From positions 3,105 to 67,104 of the IMG/VR virus record IMGVR_UViG_3300050343_000277: a stretch of 64,000 nucleotides of DNA. One strand, given 5' to 3'. This document shows positions 21,616 through 35,024 of this stretch, in pieces. A model generated the notes under the pieces. The model ran no database searches, was not told where the DNA came from, and saw only the letters and a program-made list of their open reading frames with translations. Both the position numbers and the translations under genes were made by a program. Position 1 is the first letter of the stretch; each line of letters starts with the position of its first letter. This DNA comes from a virus.

Positions 21616-21852
21616 ATGAAATCATCTGATATCCAAATTGGGTTGCGGGTTCGCGTGTCTTCTAATGACATGACAGCGCTTGTAGTAGGCAAGCCTGAGT
21701 ATTACACCCCCAACGCTAAACTAGTTCGTATAAAGTATGAAAATAGCACACGTTATGAATACATGATCAATCATCAGCTGACAGCGTTGCCTGAAGAAGA
21801 TCAATACCCTGCATTGGGTGGTACGTTTGTTAATTCACCTTCGAAGATATAG
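21616..21852 (+). CDS. small SH3/KOW-like protein
   Basis: IQIGLRVRV...TALVVG beta pattern. Confidence 0.55.
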   Translation: MKSSDIQIGLRVRVSSNDMTALVVGKPEYYTPNAKLVRIKYENSTRYEYMINHQLTALPEEDQYPALGGTFVNSPSKI

Positions 21853-21853
21853 T

Positions 21854-22669
21854 ATGGCCGAAGCAAAGCCTAATAAACGTGTAGGAGGGCATGCATACGG
21901 TAGACGCCATATGCAGCTATCTAACACTGCAGAAGAAGGTGAACTATGTATCTATAGCGGTCATTCGCTTGGACGATTTAGTTCACATTCAATGCGTTAT
22001 GACAGTCATCAAGCCTGTGTACGTTGCGTAGCATCAGCAAGAGAAGGAATGCTTTCCTTTGACATTGATCGCCTTCTTAAAAAGTATAGAAGCAAAGCAC
22101 TTAAGTTCTGGTCACAAGTAGATATTGGACAGCCTGATGAGTGCTGGATGTGGAATGGAGTAGTTAACCCTAGAACTAAGCAACCCCAGTTTGCTTGGCG
22201 TAGACCTGGTATCTCTACTTCTACTCAACATCATCCACAGCGTGTAGCAATGTGGTTCACATGGGGAGACTTAGGGTTTACAGGTGTCAAAACAACATGT
22301 GGTGAAAAGTATTGCTGTAATCCATTTCATTTGATACCGCAACATGTTGGAGTGTTTGTAGACCAAGACAGCTACGTCGATTCATTTGAACTTGCTTGCC
22401 AGTTACATACGTTGCGGCAACAAGTTGCTGAGTATGTAATTGAAGAAGCAATTAAAGAAGAACAAAAGAAAGACGATACGGCAGAGATCGAAGCAAGAGC
22501 AGCGCTTTTACTAGATCCAAATACGCAGTATGTAGATAGGTTCGAAGCTGTAATGACCGACATTTTAGCTGGCAAACATATCTCACAAACTGAACCTTCT
22601 AACCCTGGATTGTTTCGTGCTCCAACTGATAACGAGGAGAACGATGAAAACCCCACAGAAGAATTTTAA
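21854..22669 (+). CDS. HNH-like Zn-binding protein with degenerate active site
   Basis: FWSQVD..ECWMWNG...QRVAM...TCGEKYCCNPFHL; catalytic His not evident. Confidence 0.65.
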   Translation: MAEAKPNKRVGGHAYGRRHMQLSNTAEEGELCIYSGHSLGRFSSHSMRYDSHQACVRCVASAREGMLSFDIDRLLKKYRSKALKFWSQVDIGQPDECWMWNGVVNPRTKQPQFAWRRPGISTSTQHHPQRVAMWFTWGDLGFTGVKTTCGEKYCCNPFHLIPQHVGVFVDQDSYVDSFELACQLHTLRQQVAEYVIEEAIKEEQKKDDTAEIEARAALLLDPNTQYVDRFEAVMTDILAGKHISQTEPSNPGLFRAPTDNEENDENPTEEF

Positions 22670-24554: not shown

Positions 24555-25142
24555 ATGCCTGCACCAAAGTCAGACCCAACATTTATCAAAAACAAGGATA
24601 AATACTTTATGGATCTTGCTAAGCAAGTATCTACAGGCAGTACACACCCAATTGCTCCTGGCGGATGTGTAATTATCCGTGATCGAGAGATTTGCGGTGA
24701 TGGCAGAAGTATCCTGGCTGACTGCAAAGTAGAGCTGGACTGCATTACATATGCTATTGCCACTGCCTGTAAACGTGGCACACCTATCACTGGTGCAGTT
24801 ATTTACTCCACACGATACCCATTCTCTGCGTCCGTCTTTCAGCTTTATCTGATGGGCATTCGCAAAATTATCGTCCTAGCTCACGAATGGGAGCCTTATT
24901 ACAAGGACGAATTTAGACGTGCAGCACGATTGGCACGAGAACTTTTTATATCCATTGAACCACTATTTGACGATGCAGACGAACGCTTTGAAAACAACAA
25001 TCAAGCTCCTAGATTCGATGACAGGGAACAACAATTCCAAGACAAAGATCTCTACACGCATAGCCCGACAGAATCAAGCAGTTTCGATGCTTCACAATAT
25101 GACGAACAAATCAATGAAAACAACAACAGCACTTCTATTTGA
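24555..25142 (+). CDS. dCMP/cytidine deaminase-fold protein, Zn motifs degenerate
   Basis: YFMDLA...ST....GCVII.D; HAE replaced by DCI; PCxxC replaced by PFSAS; GIRKII. Confidence 0.7.
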   Translation: MPAPKSDPTFIKNKDKYFMDLAKQVSTGSTHPIAPGGCVIIRDREICGDGRSILADCKVELDCITYAIATACKRGTPITGAVIYSTRYPFSASVFQLYLMGIRKIIVLAHEWEPYYKDEFRRAARLARELFISIEPLFDDADERFENNNQAPRFDDREQQFQDKDLYTHSPTESSSFDASQYDEQINENNNSTSI

Positions 25143-25641
25143 CCTTGAATCTACTGGCCTCTTGCGTCGTGGTTCTAAAATTCATTGCATTGTTGCACGT
25201 GACTTAAGTCAATCTGACAAGCCACTTGTATGGGATGCTCCGCGCTTAGATCTTGATGATGGCATTGAAAGCCTACGCCAAGCTGATGTACTTATTGGAC
25301 ACAATATAATTGGCTATGACATTCCTCTAATTAAAGAGACATACGACTTTGACTATCAAGGTCAAGTCATTGACACTCTTGTACTTAGCAGGTTGTTCTA
25401 TCCACATATTGCTGACCGTGATCACGAACGTCGGCCAATCGGTATGCCACAAAAGCTCTATGGCCGTCATAGCCTAGAAGCATGGGGCTATCGCCTTAAG
25501 TGTTTTAAAGGTGACTTCGGTAAGCACGAAGCTGCTTGGGATGTTTACACCCCAGAAATGCTTGATTACTGTATTCAAGATACAGAAGTAACTGTAAAAC
25601 TATATGAGCTCATGCTCCGCAGGATGAATGATTATGCCTAA
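25114..25641 (+). CDS. 3'-5' exonuclease domain of T7-like DNA polymerase A (stand-alone)
   Basis: FDLESTGL (Exo I), GHNIIGYD (Exo II), HSLEAWGYRL and YCIQD (Exo III); ATG 25114. Confidence 0.92.
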   Translation: MKTTTALLFDLESTGLLRRGSKIHCIVARDLSQSDKPLVWDAPRLDLDDGIESLRQADVLIGHNIIGYDIPLIKETYDFDYQGQVIDTLVLSRLFYPHIADRDHERRPIGMPQKLYGRHSLEAWGYRLKCFKGDFGKHEAAWDVYTPEMLDYCIQDTEVTVKLYELMLRRMNDYA

Positions 25642-25867
25642 GAAAACTGATCCATTAACTAAAAAAGAGATGCAAGTTGCTGCTAAAGAGTTTTATGAAC
25701 TCTTTTCAGTAGTACGTGCTGTTATGCCTGATGAAACAACAGTTGAAGATTCTCTCAAGATCATGGAGAATGTAGCGAAGCTTGCACAGAAGAAGCGAGC
25801 AGACGAACGCGAAAAAGAAGTGACTGAAAAATTTGGATTCAATAAGGAGAAACCTGACAATGCTTGA
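25634..25867 (+). CDS. small charged protein between the PolA halves
   Basis: 77 aa; overlaps both neighbours by 8 nt. Confidence 0.7.
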   Translation: MPKKTDPLTKKEMQVAAKEFYELFSVVRAVMPDETTVEDSLKIMENVAKLAQKKRADEREKEVTEKFGFNKEKPDNA

Positions 25868-27161
25868 TTGTGTACATCTTGAAATGCGTATGGCTGAGAT
25901 CATGTCTCAGCAAGAAGCATCAGGATTCCGTTTTGACGTACAAGCTGCAGAACGTGTACGTAATGAACTCTCTGCAGAGATGCAGGACCTAGAAGCAGCA
26001 ATTATCAAGCGCTTCCCTTATGTTCCTGGGAAAGTGTTTACGCCTAAGAGACAGAACAAAGCAAAGGGCTATGTAGCCGGTGCCCCTTTCACCAAGCTGC
26101 TTGACTTCAACCCCACTAGCAGACTGAACATTGCATGGGCGCTGCAGCAATTCCGTGGTGCTCGCTTCACACGTCTGACCGACAGCGGTAAGCCCAAGGT
26201 TGATGAAGCCTGCCTAGCTGAGATCCGTGACCTTGCACTGCAGCAAAAGAACGAACTGCTGCATGAAGAATGCGAGATGTTCATACGTCTGCTCACATTG
26301 CAGAAGTGGCTAGGGCAGCTCTCTGAAGGTGCTAACTCCTGGTTCAACACTATTGAGCAGGACAACTGCATCCATCACAGCTGCAGCCTCGCTACGCAGA
26401 CAGGGAGGAACGCACACCGTGGTCCCAACCTGGGCCAAGTTGTATCTGCACCGTGGGCGCGGCAGCTGTTTATTCCGCACCCTGGCCACGTCATGGTCGG
26501 AGCTGACTTAGAAGGACTGGAACTTCGGGCGTTAGGGCACTACCTATCTGTCTTTGATGAGGGGGCCTTTGCTGACGTTGTCCTTAACGGTGATATTCAT
26601 CAGCAGAACGCAGACCGTGTGGGTTGCACACGTAAGGAAGTCAAGACGCTCACCTATGCGTTTATCTACGGCGCAGGTGACGTGAAGATGGGGCACAGCC
26701 TCAGTCCTGAACTGTCTGACCCACAGAAGAAGCAGCTAGGTCAAGAGCTGCGACGCAAATTTCTTGACGCTATCCCTGGTTTGGAGCCCCTTATCGATGC
26801 TGTTAAACAAAAAGTCCGTGATACCGGTCGTCTTAGGGGCCTCGATGGCCGCCCTATTTTCTGTCGCGCAGAGCATGCGTCACTCAACTATTTACTCCAG
26901 TCATGTGGAGCCATACTCAGCAAGCGTTGGGTGGTAGTTGGGCAAGACTTGCTTAACCAAGCAGGGCTTACATACGACCGTGACTACACACGCTGTGCCT
27001 ATGTGCACGATGAAGTTCAACTCTCTGTTGTACCAACTGAAGCTGATCATGTAGCAGAAATACTTGTCAAAGCTGCTCCTATTGCTGGACAGTATTACAA
27101 GTTTCGTGTGCCTATTACTGCTGCTTCTGATACTGGATCAAGTTGGCAAGATACACATTAA
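25860..27161 (+). CDS. polA: DNA polymerase A, polymerase domain
   Basis: Motif A DLEGLELR, motif B KTLTYAFIYG, motif C VHDE; ATG 25860. Confidence 0.95.
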   Translation: MLDCVHLEMRMAEIMSQQEASGFRFDVQAAERVRNELSAEMQDLEAAIIKRFPYVPGKVFTPKRQNKAKGYVAGAPFTKLLDFNPTSRLNIAWALQQFRGARFTRLTDSGKPKVDEACLAEIRDLALQQKNELLHEECEMFIRLLTLQKWLGQLSEGANSWFNTIEQDNCIHHSCSLATQTGRNAHRGPNLGQVVSAPWARQLFIPHPGHVMVGADLEGLELRALGHYLSVFDEGAFADVVLNGDIHQQNADRVGCTRKEVKTLTYAFIYGAGDVKMGHSLSPELSDPQKKQLGQELRRKFLDAIPGLEPLIDAVKQKVRDTGRLRGLDGRPIFCRAEHASLNYLLQSCGAILSKRWVVVGQDLLNQAGLTYDRDYTRCAYVHDEVQLSVVPTEADHVAEILVKAAPIAGQYYKFRVPITAASDTGSSWQDTH

Positions 27162-28992: not shown

Positions 28993-29301
28993 ATGTCAAT
29001 CGAGTGGGCTGCTGGCCTATTCGAAGGTGAAGGCTATATAAGAAAATTTAGTCCGCTTAAGCACGACTATTCTGTTCATATAAAAATGACAGACTTAGAT
29101 ATCCTAGAACGTTTCGAAGAAATGTTTGGCGGAACAATTAAACGTCGTCCACTTACTGCTGCTCATCACAAGCCCATATGGGATTGGAGATTAGGCACTA
29201 AAGCTAAAGTTAAAAACTTTCTTCTTTTAATGCTTCCACATTTCGGATATCGCCGCACATATTTAGCTCAAAATTTACTTGATGCTATGGACGCCTGCTA
29301 A
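28993..29301 (+). CDS. single-motif LAGLIDADG endonuclease-like protein
   Basis: WAAGLFEGEG, MTDLDIL..F...FGG. Confidence 0.75.
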   Translation: MSIEWAAGLFEGEGYIRKFSPLKHDYSVHIKMTDLDILERFEEMFGGTIKRRPLTAAHHKPIWDWRLGTKAKVKNFLLLMLPHFGYRRTYLAQNLLDAMDAC

Positions 29302-29357: not shown

Positions 29358-30158
29358 ATGGATATACTTGGCAGTGTTAACCGGTTTGCCGGAGGCATTT
29401 ATGGGAAAGTCAGTGACGCTGTAAGGCAAGTCCTGCCGCAACCTCCTACGCCTATGGCTCAAAAAGCCGTACCTGTAAGCAACGTAAGTCGTCCTAATAT
29501 TCCACCAGATGTTGAAACACTACATGATGGATTTACAACATACAAGATGAATGATTTGTCTAATGGATCCATTACCCCAATGCCAAGGACATCTGCATCT
29601 GCATTGACTGGCAATTATATTGTTGAAACCGGTGATCCAACACTTAGCAAAACTGACGTTGTTGAAGTAGACGCAGGTGCAGGCCGAGGATTAGCTCAGT
29701 ACACCCACGCTCGACGCGGTCCTTATGATCAAGGACGTCTTGCTTACATCGAAAAAGGTGGTGACCCTAACGATATGGCAGGGTTTCAAATGCCACACGC
29801 AGCCCGTGAATATAACGGTGATTACGACCCTGCCTCAGGCGCAAGCCTTTCTGGCTTCACAGGAGCACTTAGTGGCGAGACAGATGGTATGAACCTGCCT
29901 CAAGCTACCACTCACTTCCGTAAAGACTTCTTCCGACCTAACGTTCCTCATAACGATCGAAGAATTGATGCAGCACAGCACGTTGATTCAATGATCCGGC
30001 AAAGAGATCAACGGTTGCAAGATCTATCTCAAAAAGCTGAGTTAAATAACGGAGGTCTGTATATCATTGGTGAACGTGGCAGAGATGGCCGTTATTGGGC
30101 CGGTGATGATTTTGGATGGCAATCACCTGCCAGCTATAAAAAGCTTATTGGTTATTAA
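29358..30158 (+). CDS. phage tail lysozyme (Phage_lysozyme2)-like domain protein
   Basis: ASALTGNYIVETG...GRGLAQYT..RR...F.RP......RR..A. Confidence 0.65.
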   Translation: MDILGSVNRFAGGIYGKVSDAVRQVLPQPPTPMAQKAVPVSNVSRPNIPPDVETLHDGFTTYKMNDLSNGSITPMPRTSASALTGNYIVETGDPTLSKTDVVEVDAGAGRGLAQYTHARRGPYDQGRLAYIEKGGDPNDMAGFQMPHAAREYNGDYDPASGASLSGFTGALSGETDGMNLPQATTHFRKDFFRPNVPHNDRRIDAAQHVDSMIRQRDQRLQDLSQKAELNNGGLYIIGERGRDGRYWAGDDFGWQSPASYKKLIGY

Positions 30159-30463
30159 TCGTAAATATCGTAGATGTTATCTTCCATATCAGGTCTTAGA
30201 TCCTTAGCTCGTTGCTTATCAGCACCAATCTGACGCTGCCTTTCTTGCTGAATGCCGAGACCTTGTGTCATGCCACCAGTGCCAGGTGTTTGAGTTGTTG
30301 TACGTTCTTGACGTTTACCTTCGTAATCCATTTGCCCTTTGTAAGCACGTAAATAACTCTGAGCTCTCTCTTCGCTGCTCTTACCGCCGCCAGTGCGCAA
30401 ATCACGCCTGTCTTTCATATTTAACCGACGTTGATCAATCGGCGCATTCCTAAAAGCAGACAC
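30155..30463 (-). CDS. hypothetical protein
   Basis: 102-aa GTG ORF. Confidence 0.65.
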   Translation of the reverse strand: MSAFRNAPIDQRRLNMKDRRDLRTGGGKSSEERAQSYLRAYKGQMDYEGKRQERTTTQTPGTGGMTQGLGIQQERQRQIGADKQRAKDLRPDMEDNIYDIYD

Positions 30464-30470
30464 TATGATT

Positions 30471-30644
30471 TCACGGCTTTTCTACCATTATAAGTGGTTC
30501 TTTAGGAGCAGGTTCTGCAAAGAAGCAAGTAATCCAGTCTGCATCCCTTTCCAATAATTCAGCAGACAAAGCCTCTTCAAGCATATTGATTGCAGCAATC
30601 TGATGTGGCTCTTTGTAATGCTTAAAGATCTGAGTTAAGTGCAT
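30471..30644 (-). CDS. 57-aa protein resembling the N-terminal domain of 37544..38254 (not in ORF track)
   Basis: MHLTQIFKHYKEPHQIAAINMLEEALSAELLERDADWITCFF... Confidence 0.6.
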   Translation of the reverse strand: MHLTQIFKHYKEPHQIAAINMLEEALSAELLERDADWITCFFAEPAPKEPLIMVEKP

Positions 30645-30871
30645 CAAACGCCAATAGCTGACTGAAGATCTTTAACTGCTTTTGCAACAGGTGCAACAAT
30701 CATCATTGTCTTCTTTGGTGCATCGGCTTCTGACTGCTCAATAACACTCGCCACATTTTCAATTTTATTCTCTAAAGCGGTGAGCTTAGCTTCCACTTCC
30801 TTAGATTTATAATCAGTAAACTTCATGCTCACAAGAAGTGCCAAAATGGGCCCAATGATTACGTATTCCAT
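30644..30871 (-). CDS. N-terminal TM + coiled-coil protein
   Basis: Hydrophobic N-terminus followed by heptads. Confidence 0.7.
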   Translation of the reverse strand: MEYVIIGPILALLVSMKFTDYKSKEVEAKLTALENKIENVASVIEQSEADAPKKTMMIVAPVAKAVKDLQSAIGV

Positions 30872-30905
30872 ATTTATATCTAAACTAAAATTAGTCTAAT
30901 ATAAA

Positions 30906-31232
30906 TCACATCATAGTGAGACCGTCATCATCGATATCGTCAATCTCCCAACCCTCATCCATAATGTCAGAAGGGAGCATATCGTCCTGCATTTTCAATA
31001 GTTCAATGAAAGTATCTTCAGAAATAATTTCAGGCATTCCTTGCTGAAGTTCTTGTACTTTAAATAAAATACCGTTACCCATTAGCAATTCCTGTACTCC
31101 ATTCTTTTGTTCCATACGAGACTTGAGCAACCGTACAGCGGTTTTCTCCAGCGCACCTCGGCTCATACGAGTTACTTCATATCGCGCTCGCTGTAAGGCA
31201 AACCTCTGTTCGATTGTCAATTCGTTCGTCAT
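30906..31232 (-). CDS. NblA-like phycobilisome degradation adaptor with acidic extension
   Basis: ELTIEQRFAL......V..MSR..L......L....M...N....LL pattern. Confidence 0.6.
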   Translation of the reverse strand: MTNELTIEQRFALQRARYEVTRMSRGALEKTAVRLLKSRMEQKNGVQELLMGNGILFKVQELQQGMPEIISEDTFIELLKMQDDMLPSDIMDEGWEIDDIDDDGLTMM

Positions 31233-31572
31233 AATCATCTAATTCAATACGCTTGTTAGCAATCCATTCTTCAATAAGCTCTTGTGCAACAGCATTATAA
31301 AAAGACTGTTGTTGGTACCAGGATAGCCATAATTCACTTCCTTTGGAGTGATTGCATTGTCTGCAACATGGCACTAAATTTGACCTTAAATTACTTCCAC
31401 CTTTGCAGCGTGGTTTCAAATGATCAAGAGTGTCAGCTCTTCTTATTCGGCAATAAGCACATAATCCTCCAAAACTGTAACGAATGTCTTCTCTAAACTG
31501 TCGCTTTGCGGAGCCTTTACTAAGGCACTGGAGATTGAACATAAGTTCCCCCCAATCTTCTGCGTATCCCAT
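31177..31572 (-). CDS. HNH endonuclease (McrA-like)
   Basis: CAYC...TLDHLKPRCKGGSNLRSNLVPCCRQCNHSKG. Confidence 0.9.
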   Translation of the reverse strand: MGYAEDWGELMFNLQCLSKGSAKRQFREDIRYSFGGLCAYCRIRRADTLDHLKPRCKGGSNLRSNLVPCCRQCNHSKGSELWLSWYQQQSFYNAVAQELIEEWIANKRIELDDYDERIDNRTEVCLTASAI

Positions 31573-31623
31573 TTAGTTGTTGTTAGCAACTTAAATTTAG
31601 TCTAACTAGGCAATGAATCTTTA

Positions 31624-32018
31624 TTAAAGAGTATTATTTTTAGGCTTGAAGGTGAGTCGCATCTCTCCACCTAATGGGGTTTCACCATTTATTTTTTCTG
31701 AAAATTCTACCGTTGGTTCTTCTTCAGGCTGCATGGCAAGCCACTCTTCTTCAGCAGCATCAAGCTTGTGAGGAAGAGTTGCGTAAAACTTACGTGCCTG
31801 TATTAAACGCCTTAAGCGTTCAGCATTACCTAGAGTGTCAAACGTAAATATCCACTGACCATCGTCAGGGATGTTTAGATCTTTTTTCCTGGCTTAAGTG
31901 ATTTCAATGTATGAAATACAAGCTGAATGATTGAATTGTCTTTCAGGGGACTTAGAGCAATGATTTCACTAGCTGCCGCCAAGATGATCCAAAATACTGC
32001 TGATTCAAGAATAGCCAT
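31624..32018 (-). CDS. holin-like membrane peptide (31875..32018, 47 aa) with predicted -1 frameshift extension to 31624 (~131 aa)
   Basis: MAILESAVFWIILAAASEIIALSPLKDNSIIQLVFHTLKSLKPGKKI*; A_AAA_AAG at 31887-31881 plus hairpin; -1 frame open for 85 more codons. Confidence 0.65.
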
Positions 32019-32047
32019 AACATGTTAGTAACTACTCCTATTCTATA

Positions 32048-32158
32048 AACCACGCAAACTGCACTTAACCACGCTCATCCCTATAAACTTATCCCCTTAT
32101 TCCCTCTCTATAGAGATTTATATATGCAGTTTATAGAGAGTAGTGTAGTAAGCGTGGT
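32048..32158. repeat. long-range inverted repeat element, copy B
   Basis: Reverse complement of copy A core (33/34 nt). Confidence 0.85.
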
Positions 32159-32228
32159 ATTGAATTATCTTGTTGCCAGCGACTCCAAAACAGCTATAGT
32201 CTTAGTGGGCAAATGATTGCATATATAA

Positions 32229-32453
32229 ATGACTAAAGGATTATTGCGACCAGCAGAGGTCTGTCAGCTACTTGCTGTTTCAAGTAAGACTCTGCAGCGG
32301 TGGCGTCACTCAGGTCGATTGATGAAAGGAGTGCATTACCAGCAGTTTGGTAGTCACACCATTAGGTACGACAAAACTTGGATGCTCGATTTTGCTGAGT
32401 CTGGTGGTCGAGGCAGTCACAAGCTGAAGATTGCCGAGTATCTCAGACACTAA
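32229..32453 (+). CDS. excisionase/AlpA-like HTH protein
   Basis: LLRPAEVCQLLAVSSKTLQRWRHSG...IRY; convergent with the integrase. Confidence 0.8.
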   Translation: MTKGLLRPAEVCQLLAVSSKTLQRWRHSGRLMKGVHYQQFGSHTIRYDKTWMLDFAESGGRGSHKLKIAEYLRH

Positions 32454-34026
32454 TTGAGCTAGCGAGCTGGGCCATCAACTGAGCCTTTTCAGCAACACTC
32501 ATGGAATTAATCATGGTGCTCAGGTCGGGCTTGCCTTCTACCTTATCCATAAGAGGAAAATTGACTACACCTAAGTACTTGCTTCTAGTAGTGCTTTCTG
32601 TATCGCCAATCCAAGTAGCTACCTGCTTGCAGCTGTACTGACCATGATGAACCATTAATGAGACATAGGTGTGCCGAAGGTTATAGGGCCTGCGGTAACG
32701 AACACCTGAATAAGCACATGCCTGCATAAAGTACCTTCTGAAGTTATGCCAATCAAACGGAAGCCTAAAGTCATCTTTTGCCTTTGGTCCCTGAAATACT
32801 AAGTTTTTACGCCAGTCTCTATTTGTCATGCATTCCAGAACTGGTGGTAATGCTGCCTTTATTGCTTTGGCGAACAGGTCTTCAAACTCAGGCACATAGG
32901 AATTCAGCAAAGGCTGATGCTCACATCCATTCTTGACGCATTTGAAACGCTGTTCAGGTTCAATATGTAATCTATTCCTTCTATCAACTCCAAACTCGAA
33001 AAATACAGGCTGACCATCTAGAACAAACTTCTGTGCAGCAGGTACATGAGTGCCAATTTGATGCCCTTTCCACAGCCCCATAACGTGGCTCCACCTCAAC
33101 GCCAGTACTTCGTTTGGGCGACTGCCTGTAGATAGCAACAACGCAAATAACGGGAAGTACGGCTTCAAGTGCTCATGACGTAAGAATGCTTTGGTTAGCG
33201 CTGTGCATTCTTCTTGTGTAAATGGCTGAGGGCGTGAGTTCTCGTCTTTCAAACGATTATCAGCAATTATCGAATCAACGCGCTTACGTTCATTGTTAAT
33301 AGGGTTGCCTCGGCCTTCGCTGTCAACAGCGCCCCAGTACTGCCCTCGCCTGACACCAGTTGACTTAGGAAACTTGGCACCTCTTGATAGAGCGGCTGAT
33401 AGAAGAGCGAATGCTCCTCTTAAGGTTGTATAAGCACGGCCTGCCTTTATCCATTCAAAGTGCATCTGGTCAGCGATGTCTTCATCTAGATCTTCTGCAT
33501 TGATATGGCCAAAGAATTCTCCATTCTTACTTTCCATTCTTAGCAACGTGTAAGCGTCTGCTCCATATTTATCTCTTTGATTATCAGATCCTGTCTCCTC
33601 TGACATATACCAACGCAAGCAATGTCCTAAAGTTCCGTGAGGATAATTGCGATTAATGTGCTTACGCTTCTCATGTCTAACGTTAAGTTCTCCCATCCAG
33701 TAGCCATTCTGCATTTCTTCCAAAACCCCTTGGAAGAGCAAAAACTTCTCTGGAAATTTTTGCAAGTATTTTAGTGCATCTTCTTTGCTTGTAATCTCTA
33801 TCGGGCATTGAAGATCAAGACTACGAGCAACTACTGGTCGTGCTCGTGAGTGATCTCTTGCTCGGAGACGGAAGCTTCTTGAGTTGCTTTCAATCTCTAA
33901 CGCCAAAGAGCGTGACTTGCCGTGACGGGTAGGTAGATCGACTTTATAAATTTGTCCTTTTGCAGGAGCCATAAGCTGAGACCACTTGGGAGCTATTTCC
34001 TCCACCGGATGTACTTGACGTGGCAT
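32443..34026 (-). CDS. int: tyrosine recombinase/integrase
   Basis: TGSRPNEVLALRW (R), VKNG (K), YNLRHTY, WIGD and SKYLG (Y). Confidence 0.92.
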   Translation of the reverse strand: MPRQVHPVEEIAPKWSQLMAPAKGQIYKVDLPTRHGKSRSLALEIESNSRSFRLRARDHSRARPVVARSLDLQCPIEITSKEDALKYLQKFPEKFLLFQGVLEEMQNGYWMGELNVRHEKRKHINRNYPHGTLGHCLRWYMSEETGSDNQRDKYGADAYTLLRMESKNGEFFGHINAEDLDEDIADQMHFEWIKAGRAYTTLRGAFALLSAALSRGAKFPKSTGVRRGQYWGAVDSEGRGNPINNERKRVDSIIADNRLKDENSRPQPFTQEECTALTKAFLRHEHLKPYFPLFALLLSTGSRPNEVLALRWSHVMGLWKGHQIGTHVPAAQKFVLDGQPVFFEFGVDRRNRLHIEPEQRFKCVKNGCEHQPLLNSYVPEFEDLFAKAIKAALPPVLECMTNRDWRKNLVFQGPKAKDDFRLPFDWHNFRRYFMQACAYSGVRYRRPYNLRHTYVSLMVHHGQYSCKQVATWIGDTESTTRSKYLGVVNFPLMDKVEGKPDLSTMINSMSVAEKAQLMAQLASSISV

Positions 34027-34214
34027 CTAATCAACTCTGAAAAGCAGAATTGAGGCCAAGTCAGTGGGTGAAGTTGGCGGTAGTTGTCTCAGTTTGACCT
34101 GATTTGCCCTACCACTTAACAGTTGAGATCCCAGTCTATGACTTGTTTTATGCAACTGTGTGCACAAAATGCCATTTACATGACAAGCTAGTCATAGCCT
34201 GCGATTCTGAACCG

Positions 34215-34248
34215 CTCTACCAGAACTCTACCAGTGCACCTCTACCAG
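34215..34248 (+). repeat. CTCTACCAG direct repeat x3 (candidate integrase arm sites)
   Basis: Copies at 34215, 34226 and 34240; inverted copy at 34330-34338. Confidence 0.6.
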
Positions 34249-34314
34249 TCAAGCAAAGAAGATTTAGAGGGGGCTGGGATGGTAGAATCACCCTGCGCTA
34301 AAGAAAGCGAGCAC

Positions 34315-34387
34315 GGGGCTTTAGCTCAGCTGGTAGAGCACTTGCATGGCATGCAAGGGGTCAGCGGTTCGAATCCGCTAAGCTCCA
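34315..34387 (+). tRNA. tRNA-Ala(GGC)
   Basis: Acceptor GGGGCTT/AAGCTCC with G3-U70; anticodon loop ATGGCAT; GGTTCGAATCC T arm. Confidence 0.95.
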
Positions 34388-34529
34388 TAAACACATAGTT
34401 AACTACAGTTAGCTAATATAATTAAGAAACTCGAAGAAGAACTACGTCAGAGTTTCGCATTGGGTTGTGGCGTTTTTTGTAGTTTCCAGCCACATAATTG
34501 ATAACTCTTCCATCTAGCTATTGGAGGGG

Positions 34530-34958
34530 TTACCCCTTAACAGCTTTTCGCTCTTCCCAGTACTGGCCGACTAGAAAAGGTTTTCCGTTGCGATATCCAA
34601 CTGTCTGACGAAGGCGATGATTGTCATCATCAAGCAGACGGATCTCTTCACGGAATTCCATACCGTCATATGCGCTATGTAATACGACCGTATCTTCGTC
34701 AAGCAGTGTCAGCTTGCTGTCGTTGGGCTCATCACTGAAGTAACCAATATCACGGTGTAGCACGTCACCGTCGATTGTAAGATTCATGTCGCCCGAACTA
34801 ACATCACCATTCCATGTGATATTAACTTTATCGTCATTCACGGTGATTGAGAATTCAGTGTTGTATGAATCATCTTTATGAGCAGGTAACGAGAGATATC
34901 TACGGTAAGACTTCCAATCTCCCTGACAGCGTGAAAACCAACTAGAAAAATTTGCCAC
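34530..34958 (-). CDS. CpcS/CpeS-family (S/U-type) phycobiliprotein lyase-like protein
   Basis: F.RCQGDWKSYRRY, LHRDIGY..DEP, FREEIRL...NHRLRQT and GQYWEER motifs. Confidence 0.72.
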   Translation of the reverse strand: MANFSSWFSRCQGDWKSYRRYLSLPAHKDDSYNTEFSITVNDDKVNITWNGDVSSGDMNLTIDGDVLHRDIGYFSDEPNDSKLTLLDEDTVVLHSAYDGMEFREEIRLLDDDNHRLRQTVGYRNGKPFLVGQYWEERKAVKG

Positions 34959-35024
34959 GTTATATTAACAACTAGCCTTATCATAGTTGTTTATTAACGC
35001 TTATTGTAAGTAAAAAACTTAGGA

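Follow-up and report, generated by a model that had tools for sequence, protein, structure and literature searches.

Programmed ribosomal frameshifting in the tailed phages is textbook knowledge for the tail chaperones and for some capsid genes. In the lambda G/GT and P2 E/E+E' pairs a -1 slip on a heptamer of the form X_XXY_YYZ, near the end of a short open reading frame (ORF), gives a short protein and a C-terminally extended one; the heptamer of lambda itself is G_GGA_AAG. E. coli dnaX (tau/gamma) and the IS911-type orfAB genes use A_AAA_AAG, where tRNA-Lys(UUU) pairs better with AAA than with AAG, and the presence of tRNA-Lys(UUU) without tRNA-Lys(CUU) is the condition that makes this heptamer slippery in E. 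coli dnaX. Ribosomes that slip on dnaX terminate early and make a shorter product; a Shine-Dalgarno-like element upstream and a strong stem-loop drive the slip. Two isoforms at a fixed ratio are also made from the small membrane protein gene of the lambda lysis cassette, S105 and S107, which differ by two N-terminal residues and arise by alternative initiation. According to passages of PMC3091744, the tail assembly chaperone frameshifts are conserved across very different tailed phages, often in the absence of downstream structure. The subject here is a 64,000-nucleotide (nt) stretch of viral DNA (the window; bases 3105-67104 of the 67,104-base IMG/VR record IMGVR_UViG_3300050343_000277, CheckV completeness 85%), in which a gene for a small cyanophage membrane protein ends in the dnaX heptamer; a programmed -1 ribosomal frameshift most probably gives this gene, as judged from sequence comparison, isoforms of 47 and 131 amino acids (aa).

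The 47-aa ORF (coordinates of all features in Table 1) ends GGA AAA AAG ATC TAA, with the protein C-terminus KSLKPGKKI. Because the -1 frame carries a TAA upstream of the heptamer, the -1 ORF is closed to entry from upstream; it is open from 31893 to the TAA at 31626..31624, and after a slip it would be read as 85 codons, DLNIPDDGQWIFTF...KPKNNTL, for a predicted trans-frame product of 46 + 85 = 131 aa. The first ATG, GTG or TTG of the -1 frame in the window is the ATG at 31734, codon 50 of the 85. A preliminary description of this DNA, made from the letters alone, had given the ORF end, the heptamer and the hairpin beyond it with correct positions and sequences, and its account of the -1 frame, with the upstream TAA, 85 open codons and no ATG until over halfway, was also borne out. 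It had called the gap that this frame fills otherwise empty, which agrees with the only ORF listed there being a 36-aa tail of the same frame; that ORF is the C-terminal part of the extension and not a separate gene. The ESM Atlas entry for the extension begins only at this same methionine, and the clusters there are unnamed.

According to the proposed mechanism most ribosomes would read GGA AAA AAG ATC and stop, making the 47-aa protein with its transmembrane-type helix, amphipathic helix and basic end. A fraction would slip back one base on A_AAA_AAG, with the two tRNA-Lys re-pairing from AAA-AAG to AAA-AAA, and would continue into GAT CTA AAC..., adding 85 residues to yield a 131-aa isoform with the same membrane part and a soluble tail, modelled as a long helix and then a flexible end that bears the conserved GETPLGGEMR. 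The efficiency of the slip would set the ratio of the two products.

The evidence that carries this reading is comparative. A nucleotide search with 1.3 kb gave no match among isolate phages, and relatives are detectable at the protein level only. By tblastn against isolate phages the two halves were found side by side, again offset by -1, in Cyanophage KBS-S-2A and Synechococcus phage S-CBS1, and the short protein also in S-CBS3, in S-EIVl, in three Autographiviridae (7B11-B, S-B28 and WH11-B) and in a Mediterranean fosmid phage. The short ORF ends GCA AAA AAG AGC TGA in KBS-S-2A, CAA AAA AAG GAC TGA in S-CBS1, GGA AAA AAG CTC TAG in S-CBS3, CCA AAA AAG TAA in the podoviruses 7B11-B, S-B28 and WH11-B, and CCG GGA AAG CGC TGA in S-EIVl, that is, with G_GGA_AAG at the same place and in the same register. 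A conserved -1 ORF of 51-88 codons follows in the isolates with a heptamer, and the Mediterranean fosmid phage has neither heptamer nor extension.

A wider census took in 169 loci. Besides the window and 8 isolate-phage records, these were the best 80 among 491 IMG/VR relatives, for which the search patterns came solely from the short protein, and the best 80 among 376 metagenome relatives, for which peptide patterns covering both parts of a fused protein were used. Each locus was anchored by tblastn through a script, and the loci represent 155 distinct DNA versions. An in-frame X_XXY_YYZ heptamer stands 0-1 codons before the stop in 151 of these 155; it is A_AAA_AAG in 147 (141 one codon before the stop and 6 directly before it), G_GGA_AAG in 3 and A_AAA_AAA in 1. 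Among the loci found through the short protein only (IMG/VR, the 8 isolates and the window) the heptamer is present in 74 of 77 distinct versions. The 4 of 155 that are devoid of it (L005, L028, L040 and L138) are also devoid of the extension: three of them have a -1 frame that closes after only 22, 3 and 13 codons, that of L040 continues directly into a lysozyme gene, and the codons of their Lys pair are AAG-AAA, AAG-AAG or AAA-AGA. Where no contig end cuts the locus (144 heptamer loci), the open stretch of the -1 frame measures 36-91 codons, with a median of 83, and that of the +1 frame has a median of 5. The site is carried by phages of different build, namely S-CBS1, S-CBS3, KBS-S-2A, the three Autographiviridae, S-EIVl and this 67-kb phage.

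Codon choice at the slip site is much narrower than the protein would demand. The codons that supply the X base are GGA (84), GCA (28), CCA (12), TCA (9), GAA (5), ACA (3), CCG (3), AAA (2), CAA (2), GTA, CTA and AGA; these 12 codons represent 10 amino acids, and the required third base is constant throughout (CCG serving the G-type heptamer). From the codon usage of each locus, NNA-AAA-AAG is expected at x-Lys-Lys with a median frequency of 0.068 and a maximum of 0.11, and at loci with a G+C fraction of at least 0.55 the heptamer is found in 19 of 20 where 0.042 is expected. The 151 of 155 observed, set against this expectation, argue for selection on the nucleotides and not on the protein. 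The sense codon between heptamer and stop at the heptamer loci ends almost always in C or T, and the -1 frame thus reads Leu (CTR or TTR) across the 0-frame stop, so that residue 2 of the extension and the stop are encoded by overlapping bases. Other phages represented by short contigs in four metagenome runs match the window only at 31848..31895 (~45 nt), with 2-4 differences and divergence on both sides, which marks the slip site and the following 40 nt as an island of nucleotide conservation. At two metagenome loci, L106 and L161, the heptamer is kept and the frame of the extension is interrupted, after 36 codons in one and 58 in the other; in L161 the +1 frame is open for 87. Both are either decayed copies or errors of assembly.

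The extension behaves as a coding region. The extensions align as one protein family, with F, L and D nearly invariant in a KFYATLPxKLD core, and of 1.84 billion representative proteins 133 match a profile built from their alignment at E <= 1e-3. Over 127 pairs at 75-97% nucleotide identity, differences at positions 1/2/3 of the -1-frame codons number 1409/838/3402. There is no ATG, GTG or TTG anywhere in the -1 ORF at 21 of 144 loci and no ATG at 52 of 144, and at 89 of 144 the first possible start comes no earlier than codon 20, with conserved residues ahead of it. The conserved IPxDGxW likewise lies upstream of the annotated starts of S-CBS1 gp23 and of the S-EIVl protein, and the region of the extension is an unannotated gap in KBS-S-2A, 7B11-B, S-B28 and WH11-B. 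The tail of the extension bears GETPLGGEMR, replaced in other clades by GxFGEDGWSIS, GDSRLLGGAMxIxAPW or LDDLHIRAPW. An AlphaFold2 (AF2) model of the full-length relative P0012 has helices at 7-22 and 28-41, a low-confidence linker at the junction, a long helix at 65-102 with a predicted local distance difference test (pLDDT) value of 81-92, and a disordered tail (mean pLDDT 66.3; predicted template-modelling score, pTM, 0.30). Neither Foldseek with a model of the extension (pLDDT 68.8) nor a sequence-profile search with the extension at E <= 1 gave any match in the PDB (0 in each).

The short protein is built of a hydrophobic helix, an amphipathic helix and the basic end KPGKKI, and has 11 invariant positions in 52 sequences, among them W10, S17, E18, N28, S29 and Q32. 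It matches the family phrog_22542 over its full length (E 2.6e-23, residues 1-45 on profile positions 4-48 of 49); this and the other PHROG family matched, phrog_15106, carry no function label. Searches of Pfam and NCBIfam with the short protein and with the extension gave no match.

A one-base sequencing or assembly error, or a real mutation, in the homopolymer could in principle have broken a gene for a 131-aa protein that is otherwise intact, homopolymer runs being typical places of indel errors and the database holding in-frame fused entries. This account requires that most relatives be in frame, and they are not: the same break occurs at the same place in 151 of 155 distinct loci, from isolates and many metagenomes, and both frames are still under coding constraint. 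The window stretch itself occurs in the DNA runs of 15 studies, and contigs from 4 runs of 4 studies, 2 of these runs not flagged as a possible source of the window DNA, span the site and agree with the window, with no indel and a synonymous change beside the heptamer as the sole difference. The probability of an artefact or a decayed gene is thus negligible. Slippage by RNA polymerase, adding one A within the run of six so that some of the mRNA would encode the 131-aa fusion directly, deserves more weight, in that some relatives (e.g. S-CBS1 and L026) have seven or eight A and the database proteins P0006, P0012, P0025 and P0140 are in-frame fusions with the expected junction, such as an A7 template or transcript would yield. 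Efficient slippage by bacterial RNA polymerase, however, needs runs of about 8-9 or more, and G_GGA_AAG, with only three A in a row, takes the place of the A run at three distinct loci including the isolate S-EIVl. What is conserved is moreover a frame-specific X_XXY_YYZ, with G as the Z base in 150 of 151 and the register fixed in all 151, and none of the 155 distinct DNA versions, nor any of 75 motif-bearing metagenome loci in an explicit test, is fused in frame. Transcriptional slippage as the source of the long product therefore appears improbable. The fused database proteins had been counted as support for the frameshift, and this use of them was withdrawn, since 0 of 155 DNA versions are fused and L091, 92% identical to P0012, is frameshifted; some metagenome gene-calling pipelines correct frameshifts, and the four entries may be products of such gene callers. 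Many of the 100-130-aa proteins that the extension profile finds (P0052, P0054, P0056, P0067, P0089 and P0102) are not fusions; in them the -1 frame is simply read on upstream through the short gene.

The remaining alternative is that of two genes, with the downstream ORF translated from a start of its own or by reinitiation, after the stop, at a non-canonical start. The records of S-CBS1 (gp23), S-CBS3 (gp22) and S-EIVl are annotated in this way, an in-frame TTG, GTG or ATG occurs within 5 codons at 5 of 144 loci and at codons 5-19 at 29 of 144, CTG or ATC codons stand near the stop at many, and since cyanobacterial genes often have no Shine-Dalgarno sequence, context alone is no argument against a start. 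The counts of missing and late starts given above (21 and 89 of 144) run the other way, conservation begins at the junction and so upstream of the annotated starts, and separate genes would leave unexplained the heptamer, its fixed register, the fixed third base and the loss of the heptamer exactly where the extension is lost; two separately initiated genes are accordingly very unlikely. These comparisons lend strong support to the core claim of the preliminary description, namely two isoforms, one short and one long, that a -1 frameshift would produce: the heptamer is kept by the homologues, most of them have no usable start for the downstream frame, and contigs of four runs show no indel at the site. 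The slippage is probably ribosomal and probably does occur.

As regards what might stimulate the slip, the sole universal neighbour of the heptamer is the 0-frame stop, found within 0-1 codons after it at 151 of 151 heptamer loci. Stops beside slippery runs raise slippage, and the nearby stop, and in the clade of the window the hairpin, may aid it here. The 55 nt that follow the heptamer in the window fold at -13.3 kcal/mol, with z of about -1.6 relative to dinucleotide shuffles, which is unremarkable alone. For the hairpin, 50 in-register sequences (39 distinct) are available, and its pairing is kept in 79.2% of cells versus 76.8 +/- 0.9 in shuffles (2 of 500 reach the observed value), with a covariation score of 0.106 versus 0.086 (18 of 500 shuffles). 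One pair switches from A-U (16) to C-G (5), two inner pairs are broken in 17 of the 39 sequences, and the arms are at the same time the codons of the conserved I-P-x-D-G-x-W. It is possible that the hairpin is an enhancer limited to the clade of the window. An Rfam scan of 30000-35000 found nothing at the frameshift site, only a tRNA and a sub-threshold CyVA-1 match, and in a scan of 31100-32500 promoter and terminator sites were no commoner than in shuffles. A Prochlorococcaceae metagenome-assembled genome (MAG) with a related contig yielded 34 tRNA genes; these include one tRNA-Lys(UUU) and no tRNA-Lys(CUU), and this incomplete set lends weak support to the classical explanation of the slipperiness. 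A scan of genome contigs gave only 8 loci, all on short MAG contigs; none is a prophage of an isolate genome, and none points reliably to a host.

Several points weigh against a programmed ribosomal frameshift. There is no general structure beyond the heptamer, the fold of 55 nt having a median z of -0.2 over 74 loci with 7 below -2; the hairpin of the preliminary description is present as described, but it is not general and its support is modest even within the window's clade. The tRNA inventory is that of one incomplete MAG, which is tied to these phages by a binned contig only. The census is limited to the best 80 matches of each scan, and its metagenome set is biased toward loci that bear the extension because the patterns drew on both halves of the protein. 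An A run of 6-7 could in principle permit some transcriptional slippage, and production of the 131-aa protein is a prediction made from DNA.

What the two isoforms might do is suggested by the neighbourhood of the gene in relatives. Among 84 distinct genes directly downstream of the pair, 19 have a Phage_lysozyme domain (18 of them also Peptidase_M15_3), 6 have Glucosaminidase and 20 are HNH endonucleases, so that peptidoglycan hydrolases account for 25 of the 84. An ORF of 60-105 aa with a hydrophobic N-terminus stands directly beside the pair at 44 of 103 loci. In T7-like cyanophages the pair comes after the tail-fibre region and before the small terminase gene, which is the slot of the holin gene 17.5 in T7. 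At L040 (~1620-1632) the short ORF stops within an ATGA whose ATG starts a 368-aa lysozyme, an overlap that suggests that translation of the membrane protein and of the endolysin is coupled. The neighbours make it likely that the frameshift gene belongs to a lysis cassette. The preliminary description had called the peptide holin-like; this holds in so far as it is a small membrane protein encoded directly upstream of peptidoglycan hydrolase genes in many relatives, with a predicted membrane helix and a charged C-terminus such as holins and antiholins have (AF2 model of the full-length relative, at moderate confidence), but it matches no named holin family. A prediction of the short protein as a four-copy complex (score 0.02, mark 0.42) speaks for neither side.

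On the basis of the gene neighbourhood in relatives, a joint role of the two isoforms in host lysis may be proposed tentatively, one being a holin-type protein and the other its regulator or tether. Arguing against such a role, the window gene is not beside an endolysin, with HNH and NblA-like genes between it and the remaining lysis-type ORFs; Pfam, NCBIfam and PHROG give no match to a named family of holins, antiholins or spanins; and the fold models are of low confidence and were used for secondary structure only. A more speculative and rather unlikely extension of the idea is that the frameshift is a lysis clock that reads the translational state of the host, the long:short ratio and the timing of lysis shifting with sulfur, iron, light or nutrient status, and that the GETPLGGEMR-type C-terminal module, which occurs also in uninterrupted ORFs of T4-like cyanomyoviruses, marks an unrecognised family of lysis regulators or tethers. 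If this were so, slippage would depend on the single tRNA-Lys(UUU) and the modification of its anticodon, and the isoform ratio would therefore follow the state of the host.

Compared with the described systems, the locus would share with lambda G/GT and P2 E/E+E' the -1 slip on X_XXY_YYZ near the end of a short ORF and the pairing, from one start, of a short with a C-terminally extended protein; the S-EIVl heptamer is that of lambda. It differs from the tail chaperones in that the product is a 47-aa membrane protein encoded beside endolysin genes or after tail-fibre genes, with no sequence relation to them. A tail-chaperone assignment was considered and rejected, since the neighbours are integrase/excisionase and HNH genes in the window and tail-fibre and lysozyme genes in relatives, and not major tail or tape-measure genes. 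The heptamer is identical to that of dnaX and IS911, but unlike in dnaX the slip would extend the protein, the 0-frame stop lies within 0-1 codons, and no general stimulator was found. In its kind of gene, a small membrane protein gene that likely belongs to a lysis cassette, and in the predicted use of a translational device to make two isoforms, the locus resembles lambda S105/S107; here, however, the predicted difference is an 85-residue C-terminal domain added by frameshifting, and the holin role is that of a candidate. A further likeness is to the phrog_3316 proteins of T4-like cyanomyoviruses (e.g. the 132-aa Syn7803US40_211 of ACG-2014f), which the extension matches weakly and which have in common with it the C-terminal module (...D.AIEDY..., then EGETPLGGEMR.). 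These are encoded by an uninterrupted ORF with no frameshift, and the sequence of their hydrophobic N-terminal segment bears no relation to that of the 47-aa protein. That a membrane segment and this tail occur elsewhere as a single protein fits the predicted 131-aa product. The same end module, often followed by APW, was also seen in L003 (1384-1782), P0136, P0178, P0179 and others from ACG-2014f and metagenomes (100-190 aa).

Should the frameshift be as proposed, its mechanism is classical, and the gene family, the genomic place and the biological use are new. At least 151 distinct cyanophage sequences, both of isolates and of ocean metagenomes, retain the site, and the genomes include siphovirus-like, T7-like and other types. 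Annotations of cultured phages would be corrected on this reading, the extension being unannotated in KBS-S-2A, 7B11-B, S-B28 and WH11-B and given internal starts in S-CBS1, S-CBS3 and S-EIVl. The loci also provide recoding research with a natural series of sites, including the heptamer swap and sites with and without a hairpin. To our knowledge the holins of marine cyanophages and their regulators are largely unidentified and the lysis genes mostly unknown, and the two isoforms offer candidate lysis-control proteins for this group. Full-text literature searches found no frameshift described for this gene family or for holin-type genes of any sort; they included a large 2016 review of frameshifting and the accessible text of PMC3091744, PMC5009743, PMC10885494, PMC6157547 and PMC9671017, with subscription papers, such as the original S-CBS1/S-CBS3 genome paper, and supplements outside their scope.

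Table 1. Positions, within the 64,000-nt window, of the frameshift gene and of other features.
Feature	Position	Strand	Remarks
0-frame ORF, 47 aa (short isoform)	32018..31875	minus	MAILES...KPGKKI; ATG 32018, TAA 31877-31875
TAA closing the -1 frame	31896..31894	minus	two codons upstream of the heptamer
Slippery heptamer A_AAA_AAG	31887..31881	minus	in the 0-frame register (X_XXY_YYZ); a single sense codon separates it from the stop
0-frame stop TAA	31877..31875	minus	first bases also in the -1-frame Leu codon CTA
Hairpin ATCC-CTGAC / GATG / GTCAG-T-GGAT	31872..31850	minus	8 nt after the heptamer
Predicted -1 extension, 85 codons + stop	31624..31881	minus	DLNIPDDGQW...KFYATLPHKLD...GETPLGGEMRLTFKPKNNTL
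36-aa ORF from ATG 31734	31624..31734	minus	sole conventionally callable ORF in the gap
110-aa ORF, Pfam NblA (phycobilisome degradation protein)	30906-31238	minus	E 9.8e-7
75-aa ORF, hydrophobic N-terminus and coiled-coil-like remainder	30644..30871	minus	weak match to holin phrog_1296, E 0.006
58-aa stand-alone ORF	30471..30647	minus	like the N-terminal ~60 residues of the 373-aa S-CBS1 lysozyme gp24; 39% identity over 54 residues, E 3e-8
Scattered HNH endonuclease ORFs near the split polymerase	21818-22669, 28993-29301, 31177-31572
Integrase	32443..34026	minus
tRNA-Ala(GGC)	34315-34387	plus	~290 nt from the integrase gene
CyVA-1 Rfam match, sub-threshold	34426-34456	plus	22.1 bits vs gathering score 41.4
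tRNA Asp-GTC	706-779

In the window as a whole the genes include a phage DNA polymerase, a helicase-primase, a ribonucleotide reductase, HNH endonucleases, an excisionase-like helix-turn-helix protein and a tRNA-Ala. The 47-aa ORF comes directly after the integrase/excisionase corner on the minus strand, where the order continues from the frameshift gene to an HNH gene, the NblA-like ORF, the 75-aa ORF with its hydrophobic start and the 58-aa ORF that resembles a lysozyme N-terminus. The first 62 nt of the NblA-like ORF lie within the end of the HNH gene, and these two genes lie inside a region that in relatives forms a compact lysis cassette. Homology of the 75-aa ORF to the 78-81-aa neighbours in relatives is not demonstrable, despite a similar build. 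The 58-aa ORF lies 1.0 kb downstream of the frameshift gene, and in relatives the endolysin encoded after the frameshift gene begins with the domain that it resembles; the ORF in the window with a Phage_lysozyme2 domain is on the opposite strand. DNA polymerase I is split into an exonuclease ORF (24919-25641, plus strand) and a polymerase ORF (25833-27161, plus strand) with ~190 nt between them.

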